Assembly (NCBI GenBank): GCA_002373505.1
Contig: DFKE01000016.1
Coordinates: 21,472-85,471 of the forward strand
Origin: Bacteroidales bacterium UBA3653
GTDB lineage: Bacteria > Bacteroidota > Bacteroidia > Bacteroidales > Paludibacteraceae
DNA length: 64,000 bases
Direction of reading: 5' to 3'
Below are positions 1,964 to 50,787 of this stretch, in pieces. A program made the position numbers and the translations under genes. Under the pieces are notes generated by a model, which saw nothing but the letters and a program-made list of their open reading frames with translations, was not told the DNA's origin and ran no database searches. How positions within the stretch are numbered: the stretch's first letter is position 1; every line of letters begins with the position of its first letter.

Positions 1964-3121
1964 TTGAACATCCGCGTAGGAATATTAACGGCTCCGAAAA
2001 TTGAGTTCGAGCAGCGGGAACACACGTTCGTCTTAAAGAACGTGCGTATTGGCATCGGCTTCCATTGGGACCGCCACGAGGATCAGGAGTTCGCCGGCAC
2101 GCTGGAGATAAAGTCTGTTCCTAACCCCGTTATGCAAGGGGGAAAGCCGTGGCAGGTAGCCATCAACACCATTGATCTGGAAGACTACCTCTGTTCCGTC
2201 ATCTCATCCGAGATGAACGCCGACAGCCCCATGGAGCTGCTCAAGGCGCATGCCGTCATCAGCCGCAGCTGGGCAATACGGGCTATTGCCAATAAGCCGC
2301 ATGCCCAAATGGTAAATGGCAAAATGGTAAATGACTTTGACCTTTGTGCAGACGACCATTGCCAGCGTTACGAAGGACTGCGACGGATGAACGAACGCGC
2401 CGTAGAAGCCGTCCGCGCCACTGCCGGGCAAGTACTGACAAATGAACAAATGGTAAATGGCAAAATGGTAAATGAAATCTGTGATTGCCGTTATCACAAA
2501 TGCTGCGGAGGCAGGACGGAGATCTGGAGCACCTGCTGGGAAGACATCGACGTTCCTTATATTCAGTCCGTCGAGTGCCCGTACTGCAACCCTAAACACA
2601 TAAAGGCTTTGAGTTCACATGGTGAACGGTCTTTCGACTTTCTACTTTCGACTTGTCTCAACGACTACGACCGGGAGACCACGGATTTCCATGACTGGCA
2701 GGTGATCTACACCGCCGAAGAGTTGAGCGACATCATCCGCTCCAAATCCGGTATTGACTTCGGCGAGATCATCGACCTCATTCCTCTCAAACGCGGTCCG
2801 TCGGGACGCATCTGCGAACTGAAGATCGTCGGCACCAAGCATACGGAGATCATCGGCAAGGAGTTGAAGATCCGTCTATGGCTGAGCCGCACCTGCCTCT
2901 ATAGTTCCTGGTTTGACATAGAGAAAAACACACCTGCCCCTTCAGGGGAAGGTCGGGAAGGGGCTTCGTCCTTCGTCCTTCGCGGTCATGGCTGGGGACA
3001 CGGAGCCGGGCTTTGCCAGATAGGCGCGGCTGTCATGGCGGCGGAAGGAAAGACATACGAAGAGATTCTGACCTACTACTACCCCAGCACCACACTAAAT
3101 GACCAAATAGTAAATGACTAA
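1964..3121 (+). CDS. SpoIID/LytB domain-containing protein
   Basis: 385-aa ORF with TTG start. HAVISRSWA and CADDHCQRYEG motifs of the SpoIID amidase-enhancer domain. Follows a GT2 gene, a pairing I recall from Bacteroidales genomes. Confidence 0.75.
   Translation: MNIRVGILTAPKIEFEQREHTFVLKNVRIGIGFHWDRHEDQEFAGTLEIKSVPNPVMQGGKPWQVAINTIDLEDYLCSVISSEMNADSPMELLKAHAVISRSWAIRAIANKPHAQMVNGKMVNDFDLCADDHCQRYEGLRRMNERAVEAVRATAGQVLTNEQMVNGKMVNEICDCRYHKCCGGRTEIWSTCWEDIDVPYIQSVECPYCNPKHIKALSSHGERSFDFLLSTCLNDYDRETTDFHDWQVIYTAEELSDIIRSKSGIDFGEIIDLIPLKRGPSGRICELKIVGTKHTEIIGKELKIRLWLSRTCLYSSWFDIEKNTPAPSGEGREGASSFVLRGHGWGHGAGLCQIGAAVMAAEGKTYEEILTYYYPSTTLNDQIVND
2307..2333 (+). repeat. family A, in-frame in SpoIID gene
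   Basis: aaatggtaaatggcaaaatggtaaatg encodes QMVNGKMVN. Confidence 0.9.
2448..2474 (+). repeat. family A, in-frame in SpoIID gene
   Basis: An identical 27-mer, aaatggtaaatggcaaaatggtaaatg. Confidence 0.9.
2631..2657 (-). repeat. GTCGAAAG family in reverse orientation, in-frame in SpoIID gene
   Basis: ctttcgactttctactttcgacttgtc encodes SFDFLLSTC. Confidence 0.8.
2933..2982 (-). repeat. GC-hairpin element (family P, inverted) plus CTTCGTC x2.5, in-frame in SpoIID gene
   Basis: cctgcccc-ttca-ggggaaggtcgggaaggggc then ttcgtccttcgtccttcg. Encodes PAPSGEGREGASSFVLR. Confidence 0.8.
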
Positions 3122-3147
3122 ATGGTAAATGACTAAATGGTAAATGA
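3096..3147 (+). repeat. family A array (15-nt super-period) spanning the SpoIID stop and the methyltransferase start
   Basis: taaatgaccaaatagtaaatgactaaatggtaaatgactaaatggtaaatga. Stop TAA is at 3119 and ATG at 3137. Confidence 0.9.
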
Positions 3148-4393: not shown

Positions 4394-5200
4394 GGTGAAC
4401 GCGTCCGCTTTTTTCAGAGTTTCTGGAGTGTCCAGTTGCACGCCGCCGCAATGAGGTGACATCAGCAGAATGCGGTCGGAGAGGGCGAGCGCCAGATCCA
4501 GTTCATGCGTAGAGATCAGGATAGTCTTTCCCTGTTCGTGAGCCAGTCTCCGCAAAAGTCTCAGTATCATAATCCGGTGTGGCAGGTCGAGATGAGCGGT
4601 TGGTTCGTCCAGAAGGATAACCGGTGTCCGCTGCGCCAAGGCTTTAGCTATCAGTATGCGCTGTTTCTCTCCGTCGGAATGGCTGTTAAAGAAAGACCGT
4701 CCTATGGACTGTAGGACCGCTCCGCTGTCGTTCACTATAGCATCTTCAAACCCCACTTCGCGCAGACTTTCTTCGATGATCCGTTCGTCCTCTTTCGACA
4801 GCCCGTCCAGAAAAGAGGTATACGGATACCGTCCCATCGCCACGACGTCATGCACCGTCGTGTTCTCCAGCGAGAGCCGCTCCGTCAGAACAAGAGAGAC
4901 CGCGTTGCTGTTAGCCCGCCGCGCTGTTAGACCGGTTCCGCCTGTAAGACTATAAGTGCCGGACAAGGGAGGTTGGAGTCCGGCGAGGGTGCGGATGAGT
5001 GTGGACTTGCCGCAGCCGTTTGGACCGAGCATGCAGACCAACTCACCCTCATAGAGCGAGAAAGTAAGGTCCCGCTGAATAGTCTTTCTGCTTTCGACAG
5101 GCTCTGTCCCGTCACCGGTAACCCGTAACCCGTCACCCGTAACCCCTCTATCGGCATACCCGATGGACAGTTTATTCGTAGAAATAGAGACGTTGTACAC
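4355..5200 (-). CDS. ABC transporter ATP-binding protein (iron-chelate/cobalamin-importer-like)
   Basis: 281-aa ORF with Walker A GPNGCGKST, signature SDGEKQR and Walker B ILLDEPTAHLD. Confidence 0.8.
   Translation of the reverse strand: MYNVSISTNKLSIGYADRGVTGDGLRVTGDGTEPVESRKTIQRDLTFSLYEGELVCMLGPNGCGKSTLIRTLAGLQPPLSGTYSLTGGTGLTARRANSNAVSLVLTERLSLENTTVHDVVAMGRYPYTSFLDGLSKEDERIIEESLREVGFEDAIVNDSGAVLQSIGRSFFNSHSDGEKQRILIAKALAQRTPVILLDEPTAHLDLPHRIMILRLLRRLAHEQGKTILISTHELDLALALSDRILLMSPHCGGVQLDTPETLKKADAFTSAFGMDIFHPLG
5108..5146. repeat. heptamer array CCCGT(C/A)A x5, in-frame in the ABC ATPase gene (minus strand)
   Basis: cccgtcaccggtaacccgtaacccgtcacccgtaacccc. The coding strand gives GVTGDGLRVTGDG. 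Confidence 0.9.
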
Positions 5201-7127
5201 GGCGTGAAACGGAGGTTAGTATTTCGTATGTTATTGTTCCGAGTTTGTCGGCGAGTTCCTGCAGCGTCACATGCTCGCCGAAGATCTCGACGGGGTCTCC
5301 CGGTCTGGCGTCGGTGCCGGTGACGTCTATCATTGCCTGGTCCATGCACACATTGCCTACCACGGGGCACCGTTTGCCCCGGATATAGACCTCTCCGCCG
5401 TAGTTGGAGAAGCGGCGGTCGAAGCCGTCGGCATAGCCGATAGGTATGACGGCTATCACGCGGTCCTCGTCCAGTTTCGTATGGCGTCCGTAGCCGATCG
5501 TCTCACCGGCTTTGACGGTCTTAACGGAGAGGATCGTGGTCTCCAGGGAGCACACATTGCGGAGGCGTGCGCCGGCGAAGGAGAAACCGTACAGACCTAT
5601 ACCCAGACGGCACATGTCGAACTGGTAGTCCGTGAAGCGCTCTATACCTGCAGAGTTGAGGATATGCTTTAAGATAGACCGCCCTTCGGGCTGACAGAAC
5701 ACAGACCGCTCTGCTGACAGACCGGCTACGCCTGACAGACCCTCCTTCAACTCCTCCGCGCAGTCGTCGAAATAGCGTATCTGTTGGAGGGTGAAGTCGT
5801 CGAACTGCGCCTCGTCGCTGCCGGCGAGATGGGAGAAGACAGACGCTACGCGGACGGCTTTGGTCTGCTGCAGTTTGCCGATGAGCCAGGGTATGTCTTC
5901 TTTGTAGAAACCGAGACGGTGCATGCCGGAGTCAATCTTGATATGTATCGGCACGTTCTCCAGCCCTTTGGCTTCCGCGGCGGCGATAACGGTCTTGAGC
6001 GACTGGTGGGAATAGACGTTCGGTTCCAGGTTGTTCTCCAGAATCAGGTCCATCGCCGCCACTTCGGGATCCATGATGATGATGGGCAGCGTGATACCCG
6101 CCTTGCGTAACTCGACACCTTCGTCCGCCACCGCTACTGCCAGGTAATCAACTAATGTACAATTTGACGATGTACGATGTACGAAGGAGTCATTTGCTTT
6201 TTGCAAGGCACGGCTGACCTCGACGCTGCCGGCTCCGTAGGCGAAGGCTTTGACCATACAGGTCAGCTTCGTCTCCGGTTTGAGGAGCGACCGGAAATAG
6301 CGCACGTTGTCCACCAGCGCACTCAGGTTCACCTTAAGAACCGTCTCGTGCGTCTGGCGCAGGATCCGTTCGGCGATGACCTCTTCGTCGTAACCCAGCG
6401 CTCTCATGACGGCGGCGCAGGTGCGCACGTTCTGGTGGGTTGGGTCCTCGATGACCTGCTCGGAGTGGATGAACAGTTTCATCTTCTCCTCCCGTTTCTG
6501 CTCCAGCGACGAGAAGTTCTCGTCGTGCTCGTGTCCGATATAGGTGATCACGCCAATGGTAGGACGGATCATGGGCTCCAGCTTCTCCATCTCTCCGGGC
6601 TGGGAGATGCCTGCTTCGAAGATAGCCAATACCCCTCTCCCTTCTGCACTTCTGCACTTCTGGCCCGTGGCCCGTAACCCGTCACCCGTCACCCGTAACC
6701 CCTCTAGCCCCCAAACGCTCAGCGGCACTCCTATCTGTGAGTTATAGGACTTAGGCGAACGGATGATGTCGTAGTCGTCTTTGAGGAGCTGGTATAGCCA
6801 TTCCTTGACCACCGTCTTGCCGTTGGACCCTGTGATACCGATGACGGTACCTTTGAACTGCGCACGGACATACGCCGCCAGAGCCTGCAAAGCCGCTATG
6901 CTGTCGCCGGTGACGAATGCTCGCACTCCTTTTTCCCGCAACTCAGGGATGTATTTCGCGCCGTCGTCTTTGTCCGTCTTGATAGCAAAGAAGAGCGTGT
7001 GCTCCGCCTTTTCCTTGTCCTGCGCGAGCGTCCTGCTGTCGGTGAGCAGATATCGGATCTCGAGGTCATCCTCTCCTGTAACATCGGCAATAGCCCCTAT
7101 TGCCTTCCTGATTTCAGATAATTTCAT
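5172..7127 (-). CDS. alr: bifunctional Mur-ligase-like (MurF-type) / alanine racemase fusion protein
   Basis: Track ORF 5172..7202 trimmed to Met26 (ATG 7127..7125), because 7149-7180 is a canonical promoter. GITGSNGKT P-loop in the N-terminal half and MVKAFAYGAG PLP-lysine motif in the C-terminal half. Confidence 0.75.
   Translation of the reverse strand: MKLSEIRKAIGAIADVTGEDDLEIRYLLTDSRTLAQDKEKAEHTLFFAIKTDKDDGAKYIPELREKGVRAFVTGDSIAALQALAAYVRAQFKGTVIGITGSNGKTVVKEWLYQLLKDDYDIIRSPKSYNSQIGVPLSVWGLEGLRVTGDGLRATGQKCRSAEGRGVLAIFEAGISQPGEMEKLEPMIRPTIGVITYIGHEHDENFSSLEQKREEKMKLFIHSEQVIEDPTHQNVRTCAAVMRALGYDEEVIAERILRQTHETVLKVNLSALVDNVRYFRSLLKPETKLTCMVKAFAYGAGSVEVSRALQKANDSFVHRTSSNCTLVDYLAVAVADEGVELRKAGITLPIIIMDPEVAAMDLILENNLEPNVYSHQSLKTVIAAAEAKGLENVPIHIKIDSGMHRLGFYKEDIPWLIGKLQQTKAVRVASVFSHLAGSDEAQFDDFTLQQIRYFDDCAEELKEGLSGVAGLSAERSVFCQPEGRSILKHILNSAGIERFTDYQFDMCRLGIGLYGFSFAGARLRNVCSLETTILSVKTVKAGETIGYGRHTKLDEDRVIAVIPIGYADGFDRRFSNYGGEVYIRGKRCPVVGNVCMDQAMIDVTGTDARPGDPVEIFGEHVTLQELADKLGTITYEILTSVSRRVQRLYFYE
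5676..5741 (-). repeat. GGTCTGTCAG composite element, in-frame in alr fusion
   Basis: The plus strand carries ctgacagaac, ctgacagacc and ctgacagacc at 16-20-nt spacing. The coding strand encodes GLSAERSVFCQPEGRS. Confidence 0.85.
6155..6188. repeat. ATGTACGAAGG family, in-frame (antisense orientation) in alr fusion
   Basis: atgtacaatttgacgatgtacgatgtacgaagga. Confidence 0.85.
6632..6704. repeat. composite of a partial GC-hairpin word, CTTCTGCA x2.5 and CCCGTNA x5, in-frame in alr fusion
   Basis: cccctctcccttctgcacttctgcacttctggcccgtggcccgtaacccgtcacccgtcacccgtaacccctc. The coding strand gives GLRVTGDGLRATGQKCRSAEGRG. Confidence 0.85.
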
Positions 7128-7180: not shown

Positions 7181-7387
7181 AAAAAATACACTTTTTTGCC
7201 ATATTTATGTCTTCCTATATTAGTTTGGAGATTTTGCACCCAGCGCGGCGCAACACCCGGCTAACACGAACCGGATCATCATCCGCCGCGGACGGCTTTA
7301 CATCCGGACAGAAAATGCCCTGTACGACATCCTCGGAAACAAACAAAGACCCCTCACCGACGATTACGACTCAAAATAGACTCCGCA

Positions 7388-7431
7388 CCAAAGGATAACC
7401 CAAGGATTCCCCAAGGATAACCCAAGGATAG
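7388..7431. repeat. 11-nt-period array (CCCAAGGATAA x4), intergenic
   Basis: ccaaaggataacccaaggattccccaaggataacccaaggatag. Confidence 0.9.
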
Positions 7432-12469: not shown

Positions 12470-13792
12470 GTGAAACCGTATAAGGTACTTATATTTATAG
12501 TCTGTTGTTTTGCGAGCCTGGCTGCGCTATGTGTAGTGCTGCCCGGACGGATTGCTATCGGAGACAAAGAACTTCGCTGGCCTACCTTGGCAGAGGTGTT
12601 TGAAGAGAAGGAGTCCGTAAAGTCCTTAGAGTCTTTAGAGACCTTAGAGGCCTTAGAAACCACAGAGCCCCAAGACACCGCTATTTCAGCAGGGCAAGAC
12701 ACTCTTGCCCCGAAACCCAAGCCTCCTATTCCCAAAGTGCCGGTTGATTCAGTGACGGACAGCCGTATGTTTCTCGCTGCTTTCTATGCTTCGCTGGCGG
12801 AGAGCAGCGACCGTGTAGTGCGCGTGGTGCATTACGGCGACAGCCAGATAGAGGAAGACCGGATGAGTCAGCAGATCCGCGAGAAACTGCAAACGCTGTA
12901 CGGCGGACAGGGTTGCGGACTGATGCCGCTGGCACAGACCATTCCTAACAAGACCGTACATCAGCAACTGCGCATGAACGGGCGGTTCGTCCAACCCGCA
13001 CAAGGTCCGAGGCGGTATCTGGTTTACGGACCTAAAAGAGACCAGCGGCAAGACGGTATGTACGGTGTGATGGGACAAGTGACGATGATGAACGACAGTC
13101 TCGTCAAAGGCAGCGAAGAGGTGACGGCGGTCTGCACACCGCTCATTCCCACCGCGCAATATACCCGGTGGAAAGTGTTTGCGGACACGTCCATCCACTA
13201 TACCTTCGCCGGAGACACGGTCTTCCTGTCCGGACGCGGAGCGGTCTATGGACTCTCGCAAGAGAGCGACAAAGGCGTCATCGTGGACAACATCCCTATG
13301 CGGGGCTGTCTGGGCTTGGTGTTTACCAAGATGGACGGGACGCAGCTGAGTTCTTTCTACCGGGACCAACATGTCAAACTCATCATCATGCAGTTCGGCG
13401 GCAATGCCATTCCATTCAATGAGAACCCCGGTACCATTTCCGGCATCGTGAAAGGTCTGCGCGAACAGGTGCAGTACGTACAGTCATGCGCCCCGGAGGC
13501 TTCGATACTGTTTATCGGTCCGAGCGATATGCTCACTCAGGAAGAAGGCGAATGGATCTCTTATCCGATGGTGCCTTACATGGACCGGCTGCTGCGCAAG
13601 ATGGCGCTGGAAGAAAACATAGCCTATTTCAGCCTCTTCCGGTGGATGGGCGGAGCAGGCAGTATGAAGAGATGGCAGGAGATAGGTCTGGCAGGTTCGG
13701 ACGGCGTACATTTCACAAGAGCCGGTGCACGCAAAGCCGGCAATGCCGTCGCTGACTGGATCATAGAAGGAATAGATAATTGTGCATTGTAA
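12470..13792 (+). CDS. SGNH/GDSL hydrolase-family protein (partner of the downstream MBOAT O-acyltransferase)
   Basis: 440-aa ORF with GTG start and an N-terminal membrane anchor. VVHYGDSQIEEDR resembles SGNH block I. Confidence 0.55.
   Translation: MKPYKVLIFIVCCFASLAALCVVLPGRIAIGDKELRWPTLAEVFEEKESVKSLESLETLEALETTEPQDTAISAGQDTLAPKPKPPIPKVPVDSVTDSRMFLAAFYASLAESSDRVVRVVHYGDSQIEEDRMSQQIREKLQTLYGGQGCGLMPLAQTIPNKTVHQQLRMNGRFVQPAQGPRRYLVYGPKRDQRQDGMYGVMGQVTMMNDSLVKGSEEVTAVCTPLIPTAQYTRWKVFADTSIHYTFAGDTVFLSGRGAVYGLSQESDKGVIVDNIPMRGCLGLVFTKMDGTQLSSFYRDQHVKLIIMQFGGNAIPFNENPGTISGIVKGLREQVQYVQSCAPEASILFIGPSDMLTQEEGEWISYPMVPYMDRLLRKMALEENIAYFSLFRWMGGAGSMKRWQEIGLAGSDGVHFTRAGARKAGNAVADWIIEGIDNCAL
12612..12661. 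repeat. 9-nt-period array, in-frame in the SGNH gene
   Basis: agtccgtaaagtccttagagtctttagagaccttagaggccttagaaacc encodes VKSLESLETLEALET. Confidence 0.85.
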
Positions 13793-13809
13793 ATTGTGAA
13801 TTGTGAATT
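13778..13809. repeat. heptamer array AATTGTG family spanning the SGNH stop and the MBOAT start
   Basis: aattgtgcattgtaaattgtgaattgtgaatt. TAA is at 13790 and GTG at 13803. Confidence 0.9.
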
Positions 13810-16452: not shown

Positions 16453-16497
16453 GCCATAGGATCACCATAGGATGACCATAGGATCACCATAGGATGA
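16453..16497. repeat. 11-nt-period array (CCATAGGAT(C/G)A x4), intergenic
   Basis: gccataggatcaccataggatgaccataggatcaccataggatga. Confidence 0.9.
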
Positions 16498-20424: not shown

Positions 20425-21447
20425 ATGAAAGATATTGACTGGAGTAAATTAGGATTTCATTATACCGAACCGGACTATATTGTCCGCTCGGCATATCATG
20501 ACGGCAAATGGGAAGAACCGTACGCGACCCAAGACAAGTTCTTGCATTTGCATGTATCCGCCACTTGTCTGCAATACGGACAGGAGGCATTCGAAGGACT
20601 GAAAGCGTTCCGCGGAGTGGACGGTAAGATCCGTATCTTCCGCTGGAGGGAGAATGCGCGCCGGATGGCGAAGAGCGCAGAGGGGCTGTATATGGCTCCT
20701 GTGCCGGAGGAGATCTTCGGCAAAGCGATTCACTTGGCATTGGAGAAGAACATGGATTTTGTACCGCCATACGGAACCGGTGCAACATTGTATTTCCGGC
20801 CGCTGCTGATAGGTACGACCCCGCGTCTGGGTGTAGGTCCGGGACGGGATTTCGAGTTCATCGTCATCCCTTCGCCTATCGGACCTTACTATCCCGGTAA
20901 GTTCCATTGCACGACGTTTGTAGTGAACCGGCATGTGGACAGGGCGGCACCGTTTGGAACGGGCACCTTCAAGGTAGGCGGCAACTATGCTTCGTCTTTC
21001 CGCGCTACCGAACCGGCGCATGCGCAAGGAATGGACTGTCTGTTCCTAGACGCGCGCTACCACAGGTATATCGATGAGTGTAGTGCGGCGAATTTTATTG
21101 GGATAAAGTCGAAAGACCAGATTGAGTATCTGACCCCGCGGAGCAGTGCTATTCTGCCAAGTATCACGAACGACAGTCTGATGACTCTGGCACGCGAGAA
21201 AGGCTACAAAGTGACACGCCGGCATATCCGTCTGGAGGAGTTGGCTCAGATGCAGGAAGCCGCAGCGTGCGGCACTGCGTGCGTCATCAGCCCGATAGAC
21301 AAAGTGATTGACCCTGAGAACAACAAAGTTTATTCGTTCGGAGCCGAACCGGGTCCTATACTGACGGACCTTTACCGCTCACTGAAAGATATACAGTACG
21401 GACGGGCGGAAGACAAACACGGGTGGTGCGAGGTAATTGAGAATTGA
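20425..21447 (+). CDS. ilvE: branched-chain amino acid aminotransferase
   Basis: 340-aa ORF with fold-type IV aminotransferase features (QEAFEGLKAFR, FKVGGNYA). The stop lies inside a GAGAATT array. Confidence 0.85.
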   Translation: MKDIDWSKLGFHYTEPDYIVRSAYHDGKWEEPYATQDKFLHLHVSATCLQYGQEAFEGLKAFRGVDGKIRIFRWRENARRMAKSAEGLYMAPVPEEIFGKAIHLALEKNMDFVPPYGTGATLYFRPLLIGTTPRLGVGPGRDFEFIVIPSPIGPYYPGKFHCTTFVVNRHVDRAAPFGTGTFKVGGNYASSFRATEPAHAQGMDCLFLDARYHRYIDECSAANFIGIKSKDQIEYLTPRSSAILPSITNDSLMTLAREKGYKVTRRHIRLEELAQMQEAAACGTACVISPIDKVIDPENNKVYSFGAEPGPILTDLYRSLKDIQYGRAEDKHGWCEVIEN

Positions 21448-21474
21448 GAATTGAAAATTCAAATTAAAAATTAT
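21433..21474. repeat. GAGAATT family array containing the ilvE stop codon
   Basis: gtaattgagaattgagaattgaaaattcaaattaaaaattat. TGA at 21438/21445/21452 covers all three frames. Confidence 0.9.
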
Positions 21475-23018: not shown

Positions 23019-23057
23019 TGTACGAAGGACAAATGTCGAAAGTCGAAAGTCGAAAGC
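23017..23057. repeat. two families juxtaposed: ATGTACGAAGG then GTCGAAA x3, intergenic
   Basis: aatgtacgaaggacaaatgtcgaaagtcgaaagtcgaaagc. It starts inside the TAA stop of the POT gene. Confidence 0.9.
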
Positions 23058-23058
23058 A

Positions 23059-23640
23059 ATGGAAGAAGTAATCAAATATTTTGAAGGACTTGAGGAACGT
23101 ATAGCCACTCTGGAAGCAGAGTTGGCTTCCCTCGAGGCTGAAATAGACGAACTCAAGAGTCGTCCTGCTCCCGAACCTCAAGTAGTGGAGAAGGTGGTAG
23201 AGAAAATCGTAGAGAAACCGGTAGAGGTGATCAAAGAGGTGGTAGTAGAAAAGCCGGTTGTAGTAGCTGCTCCCGTCGTTCCGGAGAAACCGGAAGAGCC
23301 GGAAACCATCCAGGAAGAACCCGTAGCAGAAGAGCCGGTAAAGGAAGAACCGGTGAAGGAAGATCCTGTACCTGCGAAAGAAGAGGTGGCATCACCGAAG
23401 GCGGCTGTCTATGGCAAAGCCGTAGATGATATCCGTCAGGCTATATCGCTGGGTGACCGGTTCCTATATCAACGCGAACTCTTCAACCAGAATGCCGAGC
23501 TGATGCAAAAGACGCTGACGGAGTTGAATGAACTGGGTTCGTTCGACGAGGCCATCCAATACATCAGCCGCTTCGGTTGGGACACAGAGAGTAACAGTTA
23601 CCAGCAGTTCATCGTAGCGCTGCATCGCAGGTTCGGCTAA
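23059..23640 (+). CDS. hypothetical protein (coiled-coil N-terminus, Pro/Glu/Val-rich linker, conserved-looking C-terminal domain)
   Basis: 193-aa ORF with LEAELASLEAEIDELK, then (E/K)PV repeats. Confidence 0.6.
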   Translation: MEEVIKYFEGLEERIATLEAELASLEAEIDELKSRPAPEPQVVEKVVEKIVEKPVEVIKEVVVEKPVVVAAPVVPEKPEEPETIQEEPVAEEPVKEEPVKEDPVPAKEEVASPKAAVYGKAVDDIRQAISLGDRFLYQRELFNQNAELMQKTLTELNELGSFDEAIQYISRFGWDTESNSYQQFIVALHRRFG

Positions 23641-23642
23641 AC

Positions 23643-23672
23643 CGTTAAGATGTTAAGTTGTTAAGATGTTAT
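23643..23672. repeat. 8-nt-period array GTTAAGNT x3 containing the rsmI start codon
   Basis: cgttaagatgttaagttgttaagatgttat, with ATG at 23666. Confidence 0.85.
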
Positions 23673-24331
23673 ACATCGTTCCTACACCGGTTGGTAATCT
23701 GCAGGACATTACGTTCCGCGCCATCGAGGTGCTGAAATCAGTTGATCTGATTCTTGCAGAAGACACACGCACCAGCGGCGTGCTGCTGCAGCATTATGAC
23801 ATTCATACGCCGCTCAAGAGCCACCATAAGTTCAACGAGCATGAGACCTCGGCGGATATTGTAGAGCGGCTGAAGGCGGGTGCTAACATTGCCTTGATCA
23901 GCGATGCCGGAACACCGGCTATCAGCGATCCGGGATTCTTTCTGGTGCGCGCTGCCGCCGAAGCGGATATTGAGATCCAGACCCTCCCCGGTGCAACGGC
24001 TTTCGTACCTGCATTAGTGGACAGCGGGCTGCCGAACAACCATTTCTATTTCGAGGGATTCCTGCCGCAGAAGAAAGGCCGGCAGACGAGGTTGCAGTAC
24101 CTCGCGGCACTGGACCAGACATTCATCGTCTACGAGTCGCCGTTCCGGCTGGTGAAGACGCTGGAACAGCTGGCAGCCGTGTGCGGCGAGGAACGCAAAG
24201 CGAGTGTGACGCGCGAGATCAGCAAGATCCACGAAGAGACCATAAGAGGTTCGCTGGCGGAACTGATTGCCCGTTTCACCGCCACACCGCCGAAAGGTGA
24301 GATTGTCATCTGTGTTGCCGGCAAGGATTGA
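23666..24331 (+). CDS. rsmI: 16S rRNA (cytidine1402-2'-O)-methyltransferase
   Basis: 221-aa ORF with LYIVPTPVGNLQDITFRAIEVLKSVDLILAEDTR. Confidence 0.9.
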   Translation: MLYIVPTPVGNLQDITFRAIEVLKSVDLILAEDTRTSGVLLQHYDIHTPLKSHHKFNEHETSADIVERLKAGANIALISDAGTPAISDPGFFLVRAAAEADIEIQTLPGATAFVPALVDSGLPNNHFYFEGFLPQKKGRQTRLQYLAALDQTFIVYESPFRLVKTLEQLAAVCGEERKASVTREISKIHEETIRGSLAELIARFTATPPKGEIVICVAGKD

Positions 24332-24366
24332 AATGAACAAATGGTAAATGATAAAATGGCAAATAG
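24331..24366 (+). repeat. family A array spanning the rsmI stop and the flippase start
   Basis: aaatgaacaaatggtaaatgataaaatggcaaatag. TGA is at 24329 and ATG at 24341. Confidence 0.9.
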
Positions 24367-25813
24367 CTCGATGAAATCATTGGCGAAGGACACCGTCATC
24401 TACGGTGCCAGTTCGATAATAGGTAAGTTTCTGAACTACCTGTTAGTGCCGCTGTACACCTACGCGCTCGCTCGCACATCGGATTATGGTATTGTGACCA
24501 ATATCTATGCCTGGACGGCATTGCTGCTGGTCATCCTGACCTATGGCATGGAGACGGGCTTCTTCCGTTTCGTCAATAGAGAGGATTACGACCCAAAGAG
24601 CGTCTATAAGACCGCTTTCATGACCCTGCTGTGCTCCAGCGCGGTGTTCACCATGCTGGTCGTCGTTTTCCATCAGCCCATAGCGAATGTGCTGGGGTAT
24701 GCCGATCATTCGGAGTTTGTAGAGATGATGTTTGCCACGGTAGCGGTGGATGCTTTTGCGAGCATTCCGTTTGCCTATCTGCGATACCAGAAAAAGCCGA
24801 TACGTTTTGCGGCATTAAAACTGCTGTTCGTCATTCTGAATATCGGTTTCAACTTGCTTTTCCTGGTCGTGCTCGGCAAGAATGACGTATTCTATATCTT
24901 CCTCAGCAATATCTTAGCAACCCTGATTCAGACCGTCTGTCTGTTACCGATGACATTACCGAGAGGCGGACAATTCAGCGTGCCGGTACTAAAAGAAATG
25001 CTCCGCTATTCGCTGCCGCTATTGGTTTTAGGCGTAGCGGGGATCATGAACCAGACTCTGGACCGCATTCTTTTCCCCTATTTATATACAGGGTCCGATG
25101 CACAGGCGCAGTTGGGTATTTACGGTGCATGCTTCAAGGTGGCGATGGTGATGATGATGTTCACCCAGGCTTTCCGCTATGCGTACGAACCGTTTGTGTT
25201 CGCCAAGCATAAGGACCGTCAATCCGTAGAGGCGTATGCCGACGCAATGAAATACTATATCATCTTCTCGTATCTCATTCTGTTAGGCGTGGTCTTCTAT
25301 CTGGATATCTTCCGGTATATTGTATCCCCGGCCTATTGGGAGGGTCTGAAGATCGTGCCGGTTGTGCTATGGACGTATGTTTTCCAAGGGATTTATTTCA
25401 ACCTCAGTTTCTGGTACAAGCTGACGGACGAGACCAAATGGGGAGCCTATTTCTCGCTCATCGGTCTGGCTATCACTCTGGTCATACAGATCGTAGGTGT
25501 GCCGGTCATCGGATATTGGGCAAGTTGCGGAAGCAGTCTGATATGCTATTTCGTAATCATGCTGCTGTCCTATTTCATCGGTCAGAAGAAAGCGCCTGTA
25601 CCTTACGACATGAAACGTATCGGCGGCTATACGGCACTGACGATCGGTCTGCTGGCTGTTTATTATGCATTACGGCTCTATTATATCAGCAATATGTGGG
25701 TAATGATGGGAATAGGGACACTCCTCATTGCCTTGTATCTCTTCGTAATGACCCGGCAGGATTTTCCGCTCTCCGGACTACCGGTAGTGGGAAAATATTT
25801 CAAGAGAAATTAA
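24341..25813 (+). CDS. oligosaccharide flippase / polysaccharide biosynthesis protein (MOP superfamily)
   Basis: 490-aa ORF with about 12-14 TM segments. The first 5 codons are a word array; alternative starts at 24356 and 24371. Confidence 0.7.
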   Translation: MVNDKMANSSMKSLAKDTVIYGASSIIGKFLNYLLVPLYTYALARTSDYGIVTNIYAWTALLLVILTYGMETGFFRFVNREDYDPKSVYKTAFMTLLCSSAVFTMLVVVFHQPIANVLGYADHSEFVEMMFATVAVDAFASIPFAYLRYQKKPIRFAALKLLFVILNIGFNLLFLVVLGKNDVFYIFLSNILATLIQTVCLLPMTLPRGGQFSVPVLKEMLRYSLPLLVLGVAGIMNQTLDRILFPYLYTGSDAQAQLGIYGACFKVAMVMMMFTQAFRYAYEPFVFAKHKDRQSVEAYADAMKYYIIFSYLILLGVVFYLDIFRYIVSPAYWEGLKIVPVVLWTYVFQGIYFNLSFWYKLTDETKWGAYFSLIGLAITLVIQIVGVPVIGYWASCGSSLICYFVIMLLSYFIGQKKAPVPYDMKRIGGYTALTIGLLAVYYALRLYYISNMWVMMGIGTLLIALYLFVMTRQDFPLSGLPVVGKYFKRN

Positions 25814-25845
25814 AAATTAGAAATTAAAAATTATAAATTATAAAG
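25806..25845. repeat. heptamer array AAATTA(A/G/T) x5 containing the flippase stop
   Basis: gaaattaaaaattagaaattaaaaattataaattataaag, with TAA at 25811. The ribE ATG is at 25846. Confidence 0.9.
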
Positions 25846-26490
25846 ATGTTTTCAGGAATAGTAGAAACCATGGCTCAGGTCGTAAAGGTAGAGACCGAGC
25901 AAACGAATAAACATTTCACGCTCCGCAATCCTTTCGGCGAAGCGCTCAGTATTGACCAGTCCATCGCCCATAACGGCGTGTGCCTCACGGTCGTAAAGAC
26001 AAATGACCAAATGGTAAATGGCGAAATGGTAAATGTCTATACCGTTACCGCCATGCAGGAGACACTCCGGCTGACTAATCTGGATCTGCTCAAAGAGGGC
26101 GACTGGGTGAACGTAGAGCGGTCGATGATGATGGGCGGACGTCTGGACGGGCATATCGTACAGGGCCACGTGGACCAGAAAGCCGTTTGTATAGAAGCGA
26201 AAGAGACCGACGGCAGCTGGTATTACCGATTTGAGTACGACTCGAACAAAGAGATGGTAGAGCGCGGTTATTTCTGCGTGGACAAGGGATCGGTTTGTAT
26301 CAACGGTGTCAGTCTGACCGTCTGTGAACCGGATGTGAAGGGCGACAAAGGGTACGTGTCTGTTTGTATCATTCCTTACACCCACGAGGAAACGAACTTC
26401 AAATATATCAAGGTAGGAACGGTAGTGAATATCGAGTTTGACATCCTTGGCAAATACATCTCCCGCTATGCGGCGATACTGAATAAATGA
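25846..26490 (+). CDS. ribE: riboflavin synthase
   Basis: 214-aa ORF with MFSGIVE start and duplicated barrel halves (NGVCLTV / NGVSLTV). Confidence 0.85.
   Translation: MFSGIVETMAQVVKVETEQTNKHFTLRNPFGEALSIDQSIAHNGVCLTVVKTNDQMVNGEMVNVYTVTAMQETLRLTNLDLLKEGDWVNVERSMMMGGRLDGHIVQGHVDQKAVCIEAKETDGSWYYRFEYDSNKEMVERGYFCVDKGSVCINGVSLTVCEPDVKGDKGYVSVCIIPYTHEETNFKYIKVGTVVNIEFDILGKYISRYAAILNK
26000..26035 (+). repeat. family A, in-frame in ribE
   Basis: caaatgaccaaatggtaaatggcgaaatggtaaatg encodes NDQMVNGEMVN. Confidence 0.9.
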
Positions 26491-26519
26491 ACAAATTGTA
26501 AATGATTAAATAGTAAATG
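26482..26519 (+). repeat. family A array containing the ribE stop
   Basis: aataaatgaacaaattgtaaatgattaaatagtaaatg, with TGA at 26488. Confidence 0.9.
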
Positions 26520-27131: not shown

Positions 27132-27160
27132 TACGAGACACATACGAGACACATACGGGA
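27132..27160. repeat. 11-nt-period array TACGAGACACA x2.5, upstream of the FKBP lipoprotein gene
   Basis: tacgagacacatacgagacacatacggga. Confidence 0.85.
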
Positions 27161-27223
27161 CGATAGATCCGACGGGATACCGTAATTTTTTAAAGTACAT
27201 AACACATAATAAAAAGACTACAA

Positions 27224-28471
27224 ATGAAAAAATTAAGTATTGTTTTGCTTGCCGCATTGGCAATGATCTCATGCGGCAACAGTTACAAGGCTCAAGACGC
27301 CGTACTGACCAACGAGACCGACTCTGTAAACCACGCATTGGGTGTATTGAACGGTCTGCAAATCAAGATGTACTACCTCGCTAACGACAGTAGCGACGAG
27401 GCAGTGGCAGAGTTTATCGACGCGCTCGAAAAAGCTTATTTGGACAAGGAAGAGAAGCTGAGTGATATCGAGAAGAATGCCCGTCAATTCGGTTCCTCTG
27501 TTAAATCATTCGAGAAAAAAGGTCTGGCAGAGAATGCGGCATGGACGCTGAATGAGAAGATATTCTTCCAGGGTCTGGTAAACGCCCTGTATGAAGACAC
27601 CACCGTTATGAAGATTAAGGATGCGGAGACCTTCCTGATGACGAAATATCAAGGCAAGCCGAGCACAGAAGAAGCCGGCAAAGCCATCCTCGGCAAATGC
27701 CCGAAGAGCAAGAAGGTCATTGAGTTGGAGAGCGAAATGGACTCGATCAACTATGCTTTCGGCTTGCTGAACGGAAATCAGATCCGCCCGTATATCCTTC
27801 AGGAGGATTCAACGGGCGAGGCGATTGATGAGTTTATCGACAATATCAACATCGGTCTGAAAGAGAAGGTCCGCAACCCGCAGGTGGTATCGGCAGCAAA
27901 GAATATCGGTACGGCTATTCGCGAGCAAGAGCCGGTAGGATTGCTGGGTATTGCCGGTCTGGAGACCAACTACGACCTGATCAAGCAAGGTTTCATCAAC
28001 GGTCTGTACAACTACACCGAGCAGTTTGACATGCAGACGGCTAATCATTATGTTGACTCCGTGATCTCCTCCAAGAAATACGGAGAGACGAAAGCCGAGG
28101 GCGAGAAATTCCTGCAGGAGAACGCCTTGCGCGAAGAAGTCAAAGTGACGGAAAGCGGATTGCAATACGAGGTGCTTGTACAAGGCAAAGGTCCTAAACC
28201 GACTGCAGAACAGACTGTCAAGGTACATTACGAAGGTACATTGGTTGACGGTACCGTTTTCGACAGCAGCTACCAGCGCGGCGAACCGATCGAGTTCCCG
28301 CTGAACGGCGTGATCAAAGGCTGGACGGAAGGATTGCAGTTGATGCCGAAGGGTTCCAAGTACAAACTGTACATCCCTTATGAGTTAGGCTACGGCGAGC
28401 GCGGTGCAGGTCAGTCTATACCGCCCTACTCTACCTTGATCTTCACGGTTGAGTTGCTGGACATCAAATGA
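27224..28471 (+). CDS. FKBP-type peptidyl-prolyl isomerase lipoprotein with duplicated N-terminal domain
   Basis: 415-aa ORF with lipobox MISCG. Two FKBP_N-like halves, then VHYEGTLVDGTVFDSS...LIFTVELL. Confidence 0.8.
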   Translation: MKKLSIVLLAALAMISCGNSYKAQDAVLTNETDSVNHALGVLNGLQIKMYYLANDSSDEAVAEFIDALEKAYLDKEEKLSDIEKNARQFGSSVKSFEKKGLAENAAWTLNEKIFFQGLVNALYEDTTVMKIKDAETFLMTKYQGKPSTEEAGKAILGKCPKSKKVIELESEMDSINYAFGLLNGNQIRPYILQEDSTGEAIDEFIDNINIGLKEKVRNPQVVSAAKNIGTAIREQEPVGLLGIAGLETNYDLIKQGFINGLYNYTEQFDMQTANHYVDSVISSKKYGETKAEGEKFLQENALREEVKVTESGLQYEVLVQGKGPKPTAEQTVKVHYEGTLVDGTVFDSSYQRGEPIEFPLNGVIKGWTEGLQLMPKGSKYKLYIPYELGYGERGAGQSIPPYSTLIFTVELLDIK

Positions 28472-28500
28472 TCAAATGGTAAATGACTAAATTGTAAATT
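28463..28500 (+). repeat. family A array containing the FKBP stop
   Basis: atcaaatgatcaaatggtaaatgactaaattgtaaatt, with TGA at 28469. Confidence 0.9.
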
Positions 28501-28503
28501 ACC

Positions 28504-30003
28504 TTGGGCGTCATCGCTAAACAATCTATCCGTGGCACGATAGTGACCTATCTGGGCATTGCCGTAGGCATCGTCACCACGTTCTTCGTGTTAACCCGTT
28601 TCCTCACGACCGAGGAAATCGGGTTAGCGCGGGTGCTTATTGATGCCGCTACATTGTTTATCGGTCTGGCGCAGTTGGGCACTAACGCCAGCATCATCCG
28701 TTTCTACCCGTATTTCAAAGAGAAAGAGAGCGACGAGGACCACGGTTTCTTCTTCTGGGCCCTCGTTGTTCCGTTTATCGGATTTGTGCTTTTCGCTGCT
28801 CTGTACTGGGCATGCCGTGTGCCGATAGAGACGTGGTTTGGAGACAAATCGCCGATGTTTGTGGACTACTATTATTTCGTGCTGCCGCTGGCTTTCTTTA
28901 TGCTCTATCAGACGATATGCGAGAGTACATGCAATGTGCTGATGCATATTGTGGTACCGAGGGCGGTGCGCGAGCTGGTGGTACGGGTAGGGATGTTAGC
29001 CATCTATCTGCTATACGCTTTCCGGGTTGTATCCATGGACGGGTTGGTGATCGGGATATGTCTCAACTACGCGATAGCGGCCATGATCAATTTATGTTAT
29101 TTTATCTCGCTCCGACATATCCGTCTTCGTCCGGACCGGCAATTCCTCCGCGCGAACGGGGGCCTCGTACGCCGCTATCTGACATACACAGGGTTCTTGA
29201 TCCTGTCCGCTATCACTTCGGTTCTGGCACCTACCCTCTCTTCTTTCTTCGTGACCGCCAAGATGGGTCTGGACAGCACGGGTATATTTGCGATAGCCAC
29301 GTATATGGCGGTAATGGTAAGCGTTCCCAACCGTTCTGTCTCGGCTATCGCCTCACCTCAGTTGTCGCGCGCGATCAAAGAACAGAATAGGGAGGAATGC
29401 TCGTTCCTTATCCGCCAGGTGACGAGAAACATGTTGCTCATCGGCGGATTTATCCTGCTCGCCATATGGGTGAATATAGATCTTATCTTCCATATTCTGC
29501 CTAACGGTGCCACTTTCGCTACGGCGAAGAACGTGGTGCTTATCTTAGGCGTAAGCCAATTGGTTTTGGCTACGTTTACTATCTGTCTGACGGCGCTGAA
29601 CTATAGCCGTTATTACGCTCTCAGTCTGGTATTGTCGCTTATCCTGACGGTCAGCGCCATATTCCTGAATAATTACCTTGTACCACTCTACGGCATGGAG
29701 GGCGCAGCGCTCAGCAACCTGTTGTCTTACGGTCTGTATTATATACTGATTATTGCTACGGTCGTGCCGTTGGGACATTTCCACGTAGTGGACCGCAAGT
29801 GGTGGTATATCCTGCTGTTGCTGATTGTTATTTTTGCGCTCAATGTGTTGTGGCAGTATTGTTTGCCGGAAATGAATATATGGGCGGACAGTATTCTCCG
29901 CAGCGCGGTGCTTCTGGGCAGCGGAGTATGGATAGCCTACAAGGCTGAGTTGTCGCCGGAGATAAACCAGCAAATAGCAAACACATTACACATTAAACAT
30001 TAA
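28504..30003 (+). CDS. oligosaccharide flippase family protein (MOP superfamily)
   Basis: 499-aa polytopic ORF with TTG start. Confidence 0.65.
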   Translation: MGVIAKQSIRGTIVTYLGIAVGIVTTFFVLTRFLTTEEIGLARVLIDAATLFIGLAQLGTNASIIRFYPYFKEKESDEDHGFFFWALVVPFIGFVLFAALYWACRVPIETWFGDKSPMFVDYYYFVLPLAFFMLYQTICESTCNVLMHIVVPRAVRELVVRVGMLAIYLLYAFRVVSMDGLVIGICLNYAIAAMINLCYFISLRHIRLRPDRQFLRANGGLVRRYLTYTGFLILSAITSVLAPTLSSFFVTAKMGLDSTGIFAIATYMAVMVSVPNRSVSAIASPQLSRAIKEQNREECSFLIRQVTRNMLLIGGFILLAIWVNIDLIFHILPNGATFATAKNVVLILGVSQLVLATFTICLTALNYSRYYALSLVLSLILTVSAIFLNNYLVPLYGMEGAALSNLLSYGLYYILIIATVVPLGHFHVVDRKWWYILLLLIVIFALNVLWQYCLPEMNIWADSILRSAVLLGSGVWIAYKAELSPEINQQIANTLHIKH

Positions 30004-30007
30004 TCAT
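29979..30007. repeat. heptamer array ACATTA(C/A) x3-4 containing the flippase stop
   Basis: aaacacattacacattaaacattaatcat, with TAA at 30001. The truA ATG is at 30011. Confidence 0.85.
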
Positions 30008-32306: not shown

Positions 32307-33381
32307 TAGTCAAAAGTCAAAAGTCGAAAGCCGAAAGACTCTTTCTTCTTTGAGCGTTAGCGGTCTTTTTACTTTGAACGTAGTGGTCTTACTACTCGCG
32401 GGGTGCGCCCCGCGGGTAGCTACTTCTTTTTGGAAGATCGGCACACCCGCCGACTCCGTCAAGGAAGGGTATAAAGTTATTTATGCCGAAGGCAAGACGC
32501 GCCATTGCTATCCTATTACGGAATGGGTCTCTACCGATGAGAAGGAAGACGTCTATCATTCGCTGCACCATCACGGCGTGGCGGCAGAAAGCGAGCAGAT
32601 GGCGTACCGCATCTATTTTGATAAGAAACAAACTATTGATCCGTATTGCAAACGCACGCCGCAGTTGGAATTGGCGCAGAGTTACTGGTACCCCAATGAC
32701 AGTCTTTTGGAGGCGGGCTACGGCGATGACATTCTTCGCGTGAGCGGAACAGTAGGCGTAGGTTCTGTCAAGTATTGGAACGGCAAGAAACAGGTTCATA
32801 TCGAGCCTGTAGCCGAGCGCAGCGAACGGATTGTGAGCTCCCAAAAGGAGAAGGCTGCCGTTGAGATAGCCGTTAAAGGATGGCAAGTGCCAACAGCAAA
32901 GCGGTCTTACAGCGACAGCGGTCAGTGTATTGACCTTAATGTCCGCTATACGATGAAAGCCGGTCACCGCGATATGCGGTGCGATGTAGTCTGTTCCGAG
33001 CCGATAGAAGGACTCTGTACCGGCGTGCAGACCATTCCGGCCAAAGGAGGCAAAGATACGGTATCTATTATTCTTCCGAACGGCGTTCTGCTGGCTTCAT
33101 GGGGCACGGACTGGCCGGTCAACGACAGCGCCAAGTACGCCAAAGAGACCGTCGGTCTGGGTGTCTTTATTCCCAAAGAGTTCGCAGGAGATTTGGTTCA
33201 CGACAAGCAGAATAACTTGTGCATATTAAATTCACAAATCACAAATCACAAATCACAAATGTGCGCGACCGCACACTTCTACCTTACCTGCTGCGGAGCC
33301 ACAAAAGAAAACCACCCCGTGGCAAAGACTGCCGAAGAGTGGATTGCTTATTTAAAGAAGTGGGTAAAAGGGCTCAAATAG
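32287..33381 (+). CDS. DUF4861-like lipoprotein (pectin-utilisation context)
   Basis: 364-aa ORF with lipobox LLLAGC. The family call is from memory of DUF4861 neighbours of GH28 genes and is weak. The n-region is encoded by a word array. Confidence 0.55.
   Translation: MSRLTNNSQKSKVESRKTLSSLSVSGLFTLNVVVLLLAGCAPRVATSFWKIGTPADSVKEGYKVIYAEGKTRHCYPITEWVSTDEKEDVYHSLHHHGVAAESEQMAYRIYFDKKQTIDPYCKRTPQLELAQSYWYPNDSLLEAGYGDDILRVSGTVGVGSVKYWNGKKQVHIEPVAERSERIVSSQKEKAAVEIAVKGWQVPTAKRSYSDSGQCIDLNVRYTMKAGHRDMRCDVVCSEPIEGLCTGVQTIPAKGGKDTVSIILPNGVLLASWGTDWPVNDSAKYAKETVGLGVFIPKEFAGDLVHDKQNNLCILNSQITNHKSQMCATAHFYLTCCGATKENHPVAKTAEEWIAYLKKWVKGLK
32308..32339 (+). repeat. GTC(A/G)AAAG family array after the GH28 stop; encodes the n-region of the next gene's signal peptide
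   Basis: agtcaaaagtcaaaagtcgaaagccgaaagac encodes SQKSKVESRK in the DUF4861-like ORF. Confidence 0.9.
33225..33263. repeat. heptamer array CACAAAT x4, in-frame in the DUF4861-like gene
   Basis: attaaattcacaaatcacaaatcacaaatcacaaatgtg encodes LNSQITNHKSQM. Confidence 0.9.
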
Positions 33382-33389
33382 CACTCATT

Positions 33390-33416
33390 CTCGTTACCAT
33401 CTCGTTACCATTACGG
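33390..33416. repeat. 11-nt-period repeat CTCGTTACCAT x2.5, between convergent genes
   Basis: ctcgttaccatctcgttaccattacgg. Confidence 0.85.
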
Positions 33417-39770: not shown

Positions 39771-39895
39771 GAGTCGTAATGACTCTTAATTGACTCTTAT
39801 TTGACTCTTATTTGCCCCTTACTTGCTGTCTTATTCTGTGTCTAATTTTGAGTCTTGTTTTGAGTCTTATTTGAGTCGTAAATGAGTCGTAAATG
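39771..39895. repeat. degenerate 11-nt-period array, about 11 units (GAGTCTTATTT-like)
   Basis: gagtcgtaat gactcttaatt gactcttattt gactcttattt gccccttactt gctgtcttatt ... gagtcttattt gagtcgtaaat gagtcgtaaat. It lies between the PqqD stop and the terminator. Confidence 0.85.
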
Positions 39896-39919: not shown

Positions 39920-40204
39920 TTACGCTTCAATGATTCCTGCTTCGCGCCATGAGTCGATAGTAGCAGATATATCGGTCATGGCTTGTTGCGGCGCGACGTC
40001 GAACTCTGCGCAGAGAGCCTTGCAGAGCGCCTGAGCATCAAAACAGCCTTTCTCACGGGTTAGTTCTTCCGCTTTCTCCCAAAGGAAAGCGGCGGTCTCG
40101 TTGAGGGTGATCATCTTGTTGAAATTGATGAGTGCCATCGACTCGCCTACCAAGATATACTCGTTGCCCAGTTTGCGGAGTTTAAATCCTTCTATTGTTT
40201 TCAT
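39920..40204 (-). CDS. PqqD family (RiPP-recognition-element-like) protein
   Basis: 94-aa ORF. KLRKLGNEYILVG...LNETAAFLWEKA...WREAGIIE matches my memory of the Bacteroidales PqqD-family pattern. Confidence 0.65.
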   Translation of the reverse strand: MKTIEGFKLRKLGNEYILVGESMALINFNKMITLNETAAFLWEKAEELTREKGCFDAQALCKALCAEFDVAPQQAMTDISATIDSWREAGIIEA

Positions 40205-40208
40205 AAAG

Positions 40209-40256
40209 CCATTTACAATTTAATCATTTACCATTTACAATTTATTTGTTCATTTA
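40209..40256 (-). repeat. family A array (reverse complement on the plus strand, so sense to the minus-strand genes) between S24 and PqqD genes
   Basis: ccatttacaatttaatcatttaccatttacaatttatttgttcattta. It contains the S24 stop (TAA, 40256..40254). Confidence 0.9.
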
Positions 40257-40718: not shown

Positions 40719-40725
40719 TTATTTG

Positions 40726-46664: not shown

Positions 46665-46701
46665 ATATCGTACCGCTGTGGTGCCGGTTTCGTTCCGGAC
46701 A

Positions 46702-46735
46702 TCCTGTGTTAATCCTGTGTTAATGCTGTGTTGGG
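46702..46735. repeat. 11-nt-period array CCTGTGTTAAT x3, about 65 nt upstream of a promoter
   Basis: tcctgtgttaatcctgtgttaatgctgtgttggg. Confidence 0.85.
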
Positions 46736-50759: not shown

Positions 50760-50787
50760 TAATTGAGAATTGAGAATTGAGAATTGG
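50752..50787. repeat. GAGAATT family array containing the stop of the 111-aa gene
   Basis: ggaattgataattgagaattgagaattgagaattgg. TGA at 50757/50764/50771 covers all three frames. The next ATG is at 50789. Confidence 0.9.

Follow-up and report, generated by a model that had tools for sequence, protein, structure and literature searches.

The heptamer array at the aminotransferase/POT junction

The 64-kb stretch of Bacteroidales bacterium UBA3653 analyzed here (the window) belongs to a rumen or gut Paludibacteraceae genome; it is gene-dense, has a GC content of ~51%, and carries housekeeping genes throughout (dxs, murF-alr, ilvE, ribE, transporters). The element under study is a short array of tandem seven-nucleotide units at 21435-21474 on the forward strand, at the junction of two genes: the upstream gene (20425-21447) encodes a class IV (branched-chain) aminotransferase, and the next one, which begins with the ATG at 21480, a POT-family peptide transporter. 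The array starts within the last codons of the aminotransferase gene and occupies most of the 32-nt spacer, reading AATTGAG AATTGAG AATTGAA and then decaying into AATTCAA ATTAAAA ATT...; divided into codons, the sequence of 21433-21474 runs ...GAG GTA ATT GAG AAT TGA GAATTGAAAATTCAAATTAAAAATT..., with the ATG at 21480 downstream.

The original prediction for this DNA held that arrays of this kind are three-frame stop cassettes, which either insert preferentially at gene ends and rewrite the protein termini or are retained there as insulators against read-through and frameshifting. The triplets on which it was built are all present, each set in three different frames: TGA at 21438/21445/21452, TAA at 508/515/522 and TGA at 50757/50764/50771. 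In arrays of at least three stop-containing units, such spacing arises because 7 = 1 mod 3 and is not designed. At the focal junction, only the TGA at 21445-21447 (+) is in frame with the aminotransferase gene, those at 21438 and 21452 being out of frame.

This in-frame stop is native. In 120 homologues (83-94% identity), the protein terminates at the focal position or a few residues away from it, with most ending in ...W(C/T)(E/D)(V/I)(I/F)(E/D)(N/K); EVIEN is therefore the native terminus and TGA 21445 the stop that belongs to it. In its native form, the 3' end ...ATT GAG AAT TGA already reads AATTGAG-AATTGA, so that native DNA of the form ...AATTGA(A/G)AATTGA holds two units. Copy number at this site is graded among relatives: L092 and L083 (88% identity) have two units, which are the native sequence only, the window has three to four, L091 four, and L090 (94% identity) five, and the relatives that differ in copy number have identical flanks and the same protein end, EVIEN*.

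As judged from the sequence, the focal array is thus an in-place copy-number expansion of the native last codons and stop (GAG AAT TGA), and its graded copy number appears to be the signature of slippage expansion and not of the insertion of a foreign cassette. The part of the original prediction that invoked an inserted cassette is not supported here: the C-termini of the homologues lie at or close to one position, and the array expands native codons and a native stop. Orthologues that end alike without arrays, an observation that the prediction itself had named as contrary to it, are what this locus presents.

Abundance, placement and turnover of the arrays

Tandem arrays are a pervasive feature of the window. 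Detected with Tandem Repeats Finder (TRF), with overlapping calls merged, 69 arrays are found where 20 dinucleotide shuffles of the window contain a mean of 8.05 (~8-fold excess). The excess is greatest for arrays with a best period of 7 (32 vs 1.0 in the shuffles, ~32-fold) and is likewise evident for arrays with a TRF score of at least 40 (46 vs 1.2) and for exact period-7 runs of self-matches (12 vs 0.0 expected). The density is ~1 array per kb, and ~0.5 per kb for heptamer arrays alone. The window is matched by 80 syntenic loci, from metagenome-assembled genomes labelled Paludibacteraceae or Bacteroidales, at 62-95% protein identity, and near-verbatim copies of it occur in rumen and gut metagenome runs. 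In the comparative set of 81 related genomes and sequences (1.43 Mb in total) there are 1,230 arrays; period 7 is again the commonest (453), followed by 9 (118), 11 (97), 8 (93) and 14/15 (74/73).

The arrays lie at gene ends far more often than chance placement would put them there, as the original prediction had supposed. Of the 49 stop codons of the window, 12 fall within or adjoin an array, compared to 1.9 when arrays are placed at random and 5.1 when they are confined to non-coding DNA and 15-nt margins (P about 5e-4); in the 81 genomes, the count is 150 of 1110 stops against 35 expected. Overall, stops are enriched at arrays ~4-6 times over random placement, and the median distance from the array end to the next start, like that from the array start to the stop, is -1 nt. 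This association arises mostly because arrays are tolerated in non-coding DNA, which consists here largely of tiny post-stop spacers. As a description, the three-frame stop behavior stands: all three sense frames are closed in 67% of array-bearing co-directional spacers of 15-60 nt and in 27% of array-free ones. Per junction, however, array frequency is much the same in convergent (25%), divergent (34%) and co-directional (28%) settings, which counts against a conserved insulator.

Array length changes in whole units. In the regions examined of near-identical strain contigs, nearly all clean indels lie inside arrays and amount to one unit of 7 or 11 nt: -7 nt at 23035 and -7 nt at 1947 in X11, -11 nt at 27132 (an 11-mer array) and +7 nt at 29997 in X12, and +7 nt at 30001 in X6. 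The non-unit exceptions lie within arrays as well: X12 shows several gaps of 1-3 nt at 23036-23056, and X11 five deletions of 1-2 nt at 29973-29989, 6 nt in total. The 7-nt strain indels are confined to intergenic junction arrays or to the extreme 3' end of a gene.

Over longer distances, whole arrays come and go. At three orthologous junctions compared across 36-70 species, arrays are present in 36%, 54% and 29% of species and are built from 10, 25 and 11 different words; species without arrays have ATGA/TTGA/TAATG-type overlaps or spacers of a few nucleotides in their place. Nine further syntenic loci display the same pattern of gain and loss at ten more junctions.

The arrays are probably slippage-prone simple-sequence repeats (SSRs) with a strong preference for 7-nt units that have subsequently been sorted by selection. 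In this proposal, the units, mostly of 7 nt and also of 8, 11 and 15 (7 + 8) nt, would arise and change length through strand slippage. Junction arrays would be seeded by chance near-repeats in the last codons and stop of one gene, or in the start and first codons of the next; in the focal case, native ...ATT GAG AAT TGA would have expanded downstream. Purifying selection would then act on the products: between open reading frames (ORFs), the survivors would be those with which the upstream gene still finds a stop close by and the downstream gene retains a start, while within ORFs they would be open in frame and change by multiples of 3 nt, in 21-nt steps or in 15-nt units. What is demonstrated is that the repeats exist, that they vary by units, that the focal terminus is native and that arrays turn over between species; that slippage is the enzymatic cause, and selection the force that sorts, is inferred.

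Two sets of observations weigh against this reading: the orientation of the stops, considered next, and a restricted vocabulary of repeat words, considered in the following section. Arrays that close all three frames on the sense strand outnumber those that do so on the antisense strand only by 36 to 6 overall and by 32 to 2 for period 7, and in junction arrays TGA is 6-fold more frequent than its complement TCA, where base skew alone predicts ~2-fold. Together with the higher closure of array-bearing spacers, these figures favor an unlikely alternative, in which junction arrays are themselves selected, either as three-frame stop insulators or as unstructured A/U-rich spacers that uncouple adjacent genes and provide a leader for Shine-Dalgarno-free initiation in Bacteroidota. 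Arrays of both classes, at junctions and in ORFs, are A-rich on the mRNA strand, and they are unstructured: eight junction arrays fold no better than their shuffles (z-scores -1.4 to +1.6). A translational function has been proposed by MacGregor for TAACTGA repeats upstream of starts (PMC4679880).

Against a selected role stands the lack of conservation at orthologous junctions, where arrays occur in 29-54% of species, with a variety of words, and 4-nt overlaps take their place in many sister species; arrays are equally common at divergent and convergent junctions, their copy number differs between strains, and three-frame closure is automatic with three or more 7-nt units. The idea that arrays are retained as read-through or frameshift insulators is not supported on these grounds; a weak generic benefit of junction arrays may exist. 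The orientation bias is also expected from native-stop seeding combined with loss of arrays that abolish termination. It could partly reflect selection for stops, a reading confounded by native-stop seeding and by the ORF caller: this simple caller takes the longest possible start, pulling stop-free arrays into ORFs, and therefore introduces an ascertainment bias into the orientation statistics that is not fully removable.

A structured RNA, a terminator or a palindrome resembling repetitive extragenic palindromes or miniature inverted-repeat transposable elements is rejected, given the folding of the eight junction arrays and the lack of any match in an Rfam scan of the window. A 3.8-kb metatranscriptome contig is colinear with the DNA across junction and in-ORF arrays, which are therefore transcribed and stay in the RNA, unless DNA was carried over into the RNA library. 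With the same caveat, excision of in-ORF arrays at the RNA level is rejected, since the RNA contig is colinear and reading frames are kept.

Arrays at other junctions, arrays within ORFs and their shared words

The other junction arrays cataloged in the window lie on the forward strand, with one exception, and supply or adjoin stops and starts in diverse ways. A TAATTCG array at 508-540 separates gene 103-510 from a family 2 glycosyltransferase (GT2) gene, and its first TAA is the functional stop; in array-less species, this junction is an ordinary ATGA overlap. The same word forms the array at 1934-1960, which provides the TAA stop at the junction of the glycosyltransferase and SpoIID-like genes. 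At 3094-3147, an array of 15-nt (8+7) units, TAAATGAC TAAATGG, includes the SpoIID-like stop at 3119 and the ATG of the next gene at 3137 (MVND...), genes that overlap in array-less species. An AATTGTG array at 13778-13809 contains both the TAA stop at 13790 and a candidate GTG start at 13803; three copies of GTCGAAA at 23035-23056 follow the native TAA stop at 23016 at a distance of 19 nt; and an 8-nt array, GTTAAGAT, at 23644-23671 is built on a native ATG TTA and holds the start, at 23666, of an RsmI-like gene.

Further along, a 15-nt array of AAATGAAC/AAATGGT at 24331-24364 comes right after the TGA stop at 24329 and includes the ATG at 24341 (MVNDK...). The AAATTAA/AGAAATT array at 25805-25844 contains the TAA stop at 25811, and the C-terminus encoded there is unlike that of array-less orthologues, in which the gene overlaps ribE. 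The TGA stop of ribE itself (26488) lies in a TAAATGA-type 15-nt array at 26480-26519. An AAATGGT/AAATGAC array at 28463-28503 contains the native TGA stop (28469) of an FKBP gene, whose terminus ...LLDIK* is conserved among orthologues, and an ACACATT/ACATTAA array at 29981-30007 codes for the last residues of its gene and the TAA stop at 30001. An AGTCAAA array (32308-32337) is placed next to the TAA stop at 32304, beginning 1 nt past it, and a GAATTGA array at 50753-50786 contains the TGA stop at 50757 (...AAT TGA) and extends to the start region of the next gene. The exception is the TAAATGG-type array at 40205-40256 (-), which separates ORF 40254-40718, with its stop at 40254-40256, from ORF 39920-40204, which starts at 40204: the array is sense-oriented with respect to its minus-strand genes, so array orientation follows gene direction. 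In this region, the ORF caller preferred a long plus-strand ORF, 40294-40974, which is likely spurious, over the opposite-strand ORFs 40254-40718 (-) and 40726-41265 (-), which look genuine.

With this catalog, several specific claims of the original prediction can be refined. Of the 14 stops that it placed in or at the edge of arrays, 12 lie no more than 1 nt from a TRF array; the stop at 23016 precedes its array by 19 nt and drops out, and 40254 (-) qualifies only if degenerate units are counted. The starts at 3137, 13803, 23666 and 24341 are array-encoded as proposed, while that at 56380 is merely a two-unit word (ATGGTAAATGAC). Rewriting of termini is real at some genes and absent at the focal one: the last 1-12 residues are array-encoded and unlike those of array-less orthologues in the flippase gene 24341-25813, in gene 28504-30003 and, slightly, in RibE, whereas syntenic comparison indicates that the native stop is retained at the aminotransferase, POT, 23059-23640 and FKBP genes. 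Native codons are also found inside junction arrays elsewhere: in L088, ...GTT GAC TAG is followed by CCGACTAG TTGACTAG, and in several species, L026 and L056 among them, an (ATGAATA)n array is built on the start region of the next gene.

Two other kinds of repeated sequence share the intergenic regions. Arrays with 11-nt units (ACCCAAGGATA, CCATAGGATCA, TACGAGACACA, TGAGTCTTATT...) form a second class, which lies mostly in longer intergenic regions (7387-7430, 16454-16497, 27132-27161, 33389-33411, 39780-39895 and 46701-46732 in the window); one 11-mer word, CACCCAAGGAT, is also found in another species (L014). Separately, a conserved element of ~60-90 nt with the sequence ...CCCTATATATAC(T/A)..GTATATAT(C/T)CCGTGATTTT(G/T)A... 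occupies different gene junctions in different species: g103/GT in L006, L015, L035, L049 and L066, ilvE/POT in L081/L082, and GT/Spo in L014. It is set apart from the tandem arrays and is possibly a small mobile element or a promoter-like one.

Most heptamer arrays of the 81 genomes lie within ORFs (306 of 453), and 119 of these 306 have sense-strand stop triplets in the non-reading frames. The earlier claim that in-ORF copies use the stop-free strand is accurate for AAATTCA and CTCAATT and fails for AAATGGT, the commonest word, which occurs in ORFs in 40 arrays on its TAA-containing sense strand and in 4 on the antisense strand. AAATGGT stays open by alternating 7- and 8-nt units, which yields a 15-nt, five-codon repeat encoding MVNGK. 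The 27-mer AAATGGTAAATGGCAAAATGGTAAATG at 2307-2333 (+), encoding MVNGKMVN, is an example: it presents the TAA-containing strand, is open via 7+8 phasing, and has an identical copy at 2448-2474. In a metagenome contig (L094, ~1988-2290, minus strand), more than 10 tandem copies of the 15-nt AAATGGTAAATGGCA within an ORF encode (MVNGK)n.

The GT2 glycosyltransferase gene carries a 33-nt AAATTCA array at 740-772 (+), translated in a loop of the enzyme, and a CAATTCT array at 935-970 (+), for which comparison with the relative L002 (92% identity) gives a difference of exactly 21 nt, or three units and seven amino acids. Across species, the four loop sites of this enzyme (740-772, 935-970, 1326-1358 and 1517-1548) contain different repeat-derived peptides, for example GAPSPVTRNPLPL, or none; the corresponding region lies around 10001-11400 in L001-L080. 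At the fourth site, L011, L026, L027, L039, L042, L047, L051, L052 and L054 have a common non-tandem insertion encoding AGLEPEQDSHAAP(R/K/Q), while others have heptamer arrays there. By their sequences, the four positions look like hypervariable insertion hot spots within a conserved enzyme.

Repeats that slip by 7 nt would be suited to contingency loci, which in host-adapted pathogens consist of slippage-prone repeats with a unit length not divisible by three. Each 7-nt copy gained or lost shifts the frame, and copy number does vary between strains; yet the hosts here are housekeeping genes, not surface or restriction genes, and the in-ORF differences preserve the frame, in 21-nt steps or 15-nt units. 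That the arrays switch genes by phase variation is therefore very improbable.

The vocabulary of the arrays is a difficulty for plain slippage. The 453 heptamer arrays fall into 149 word classes, the top three of which account for 68: AAATGGT (26 arrays), AGTCGAA-type (24) and CCCGTAA-type (18). The 12-mer AAATGGTAAATG has 18 copies in the window against 0.01 expected, always in gene sense, at sites from 1326 to 28474 (+) plus 40225 (-). Imperfect arrays are identical at distinct sites, over 29 nt at 2307/2448 and 22 nt at 508/1934, and the exact 27-mer AAATGGTAAATGGCAAAATGGTAAATG recurs in unrelated ORFs and at gene starts of other metagenome contigs. At 25805-25844, strains in runs X11 and X12 have, between flanks that are about 98% identical (~2% apart), an AAATGGT/TAAATGAC-type array like that at 28466-28499 instead of AAATTAA. 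A restricted set of words common to non-orthologous sites and to different species is left unexplained by plain local slippage.

These observations support a second alternative, also unlikely: that arrays spread by copying, through ectopic gene conversion or a dedicated templated or mobile mechanism, to gene ends and protein loops, so that stops, starts and loop peptides are imported. Metagenome read depth spikes 16-43x at arrays, pointing to many additional copies elsewhere. The composite word ATGTACGAAGGA, an ATGTACG unit joined to AAGGA, occurs at six sites in junctions and ORFs (6179, 12416, 18221 and 23020 on the plus strand, 63914 and 46053 on the minus strand), and the CCCGTAA arrays at 5108-5145 and 6671-6701 have a common 3' flank, CCCCTCTA, and CCCGTAACCCCTCTA is shared at 5136 and 6692; shared flanks of this kind are a hint that arrays were copied and did not grow independently. 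Three unrelated genes (3137, 24341 and 56380) start with ATGGTAAATGA(C/T), which encodes MVND. The same four GT2 loop sites hold different arrays across species, and at 25805 an entire array has been exchanged between strains.

Copying is hard to reconcile with the focal array and several others, which are plainly made of native flanking codons, and with the unit-sized changes that separate close relatives. A local proto-repeat origin is not evident for the AAATGGT and TAATTCG words or for the identical imperfect arrays. No target-site duplications, terminal structures or array-associated genes are evident in the window, and no dedicated array-making enzyme is seen among its genes. The exchange of arrays could be ordinary homologous recombination among strains, and the vocabulary bias could stem from selection on encoded peptides and A-rich leaders; peptide-level selection for hydrophilic loops and native-stop seeding can explain part of the array bias. 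A stronger version, in which a lineage-specific, transcription-oriented copying process in rumen Paludibacteraceae, going beyond replication slippage, deposits a small A-rich vocabulary of 7/8/15-nt units (AAATGGT/TAAATGAC, AGTCGAA, TTACGGG, ATGTACG, TAATTCG...) at junctions and in loops, is considered unlikely. Such a process would import stops, starts (with their MVND... N-termini) and loop peptides again and again, and trade them among loci.

Comparison with known heptanucleotide repeats

Whichever process generates them, hypermutable repeats hold the stops and starts of many genes in this clade; as a result, strains are not alike in their gene ends, in spacer length or in a few terminal residues. 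In annotation, start calls made automatically, 'MVND...' among them, need care. Heptamer repeats are tolerated in the essential genes and operon junctions of the clade to an unusual extent, a natural case that could help to test why 7 nt is a favored slippage unit in prokaryotes and how fast repeats remodel protein loops. Literature searches found no paper on heptamer repeats in Paludibacteraceae; similar repeats are known from other lineages.

Cyanobacterial genomes reportedly contain short tandemly repeated repetitive (STRR) heptamers, attributed to Mazel and colleagues in 1990, with several words per genome, in tandem copies that are scattered over many loci. The words are not the same, those of cyanobacteria being CCCCAGT and similar, those here A-rich.

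A close parallel in placement is offered by gene-oriented TAACTGA heptamer arrays, which adjoin starts and stops and are mostly intergenic (MacGregor, 2015; PMC4679880). Forward TAACTGA repeats give stops in all three frames and hence are necessarily found at ORF ends; some sets overlap stops or lie in ORFs, and 169 sets are present in that draft genome (PMC4679880). The three-frame stop property is thus arithmetic and was already noted for TAACTGA, and the insulator idea adds little to it. Both systems consist of short heptamer tandems of two to several copies, near starts and stops, in gene orientation. They differ in that one word dominates there, with related heptamers rarely repeated, whereas 149 word classes are found here, along with frequent translated loop insertions in ORFs and a far higher density. 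Tandem TAACTGA is absent from the window, where two hits with two mismatches (0.28 expected; 3 of 100 shuffles reach this number) are neither of them TAACTGA arrays; lacking the word, this genome falls outside the TAACTGA system.

Heptanucleotides are the commonest class of long SSRs in prokaryotes, and slippage has been proposed as their origin (Mrazek et al., 2007, as summarized in PMC4679880). As that summary describes them, long SSRs (5-11 nt units) resemble the present arrays in the dominance of period 7 and in a sporadic phylogenetic distribution with a few very rich genomes; in contrast, it is units divisible by three that are tolerated in coding regions there, and true heptamers lie in ORFs here, where stop-free words, 21-nt steps or 7+8 phasing keep them open. 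Two of the features that define long SSRs are found in these genomes: tandem 5-11-nt units above chance and whole-unit length polymorphism between relatives. For the low-complexity peptide segments encoded within ORFs, the tandem repeats of Borgs are comparable by their general description: they are pervasive, fast-evolving and independently arising, lie between genes and in ORFs, and encode disordered protein regions (PMC9879509), in an archaeal extrachromosomal element. Contingency loci, by contrast, differ in their hosts and in-frame behavior from the housekeeping genes and frame-preserving changes seen here. This genome is a very repeat-rich, multi-word member of the known class of heptanucleotide SSRs, with many translated in-ORF arrays.

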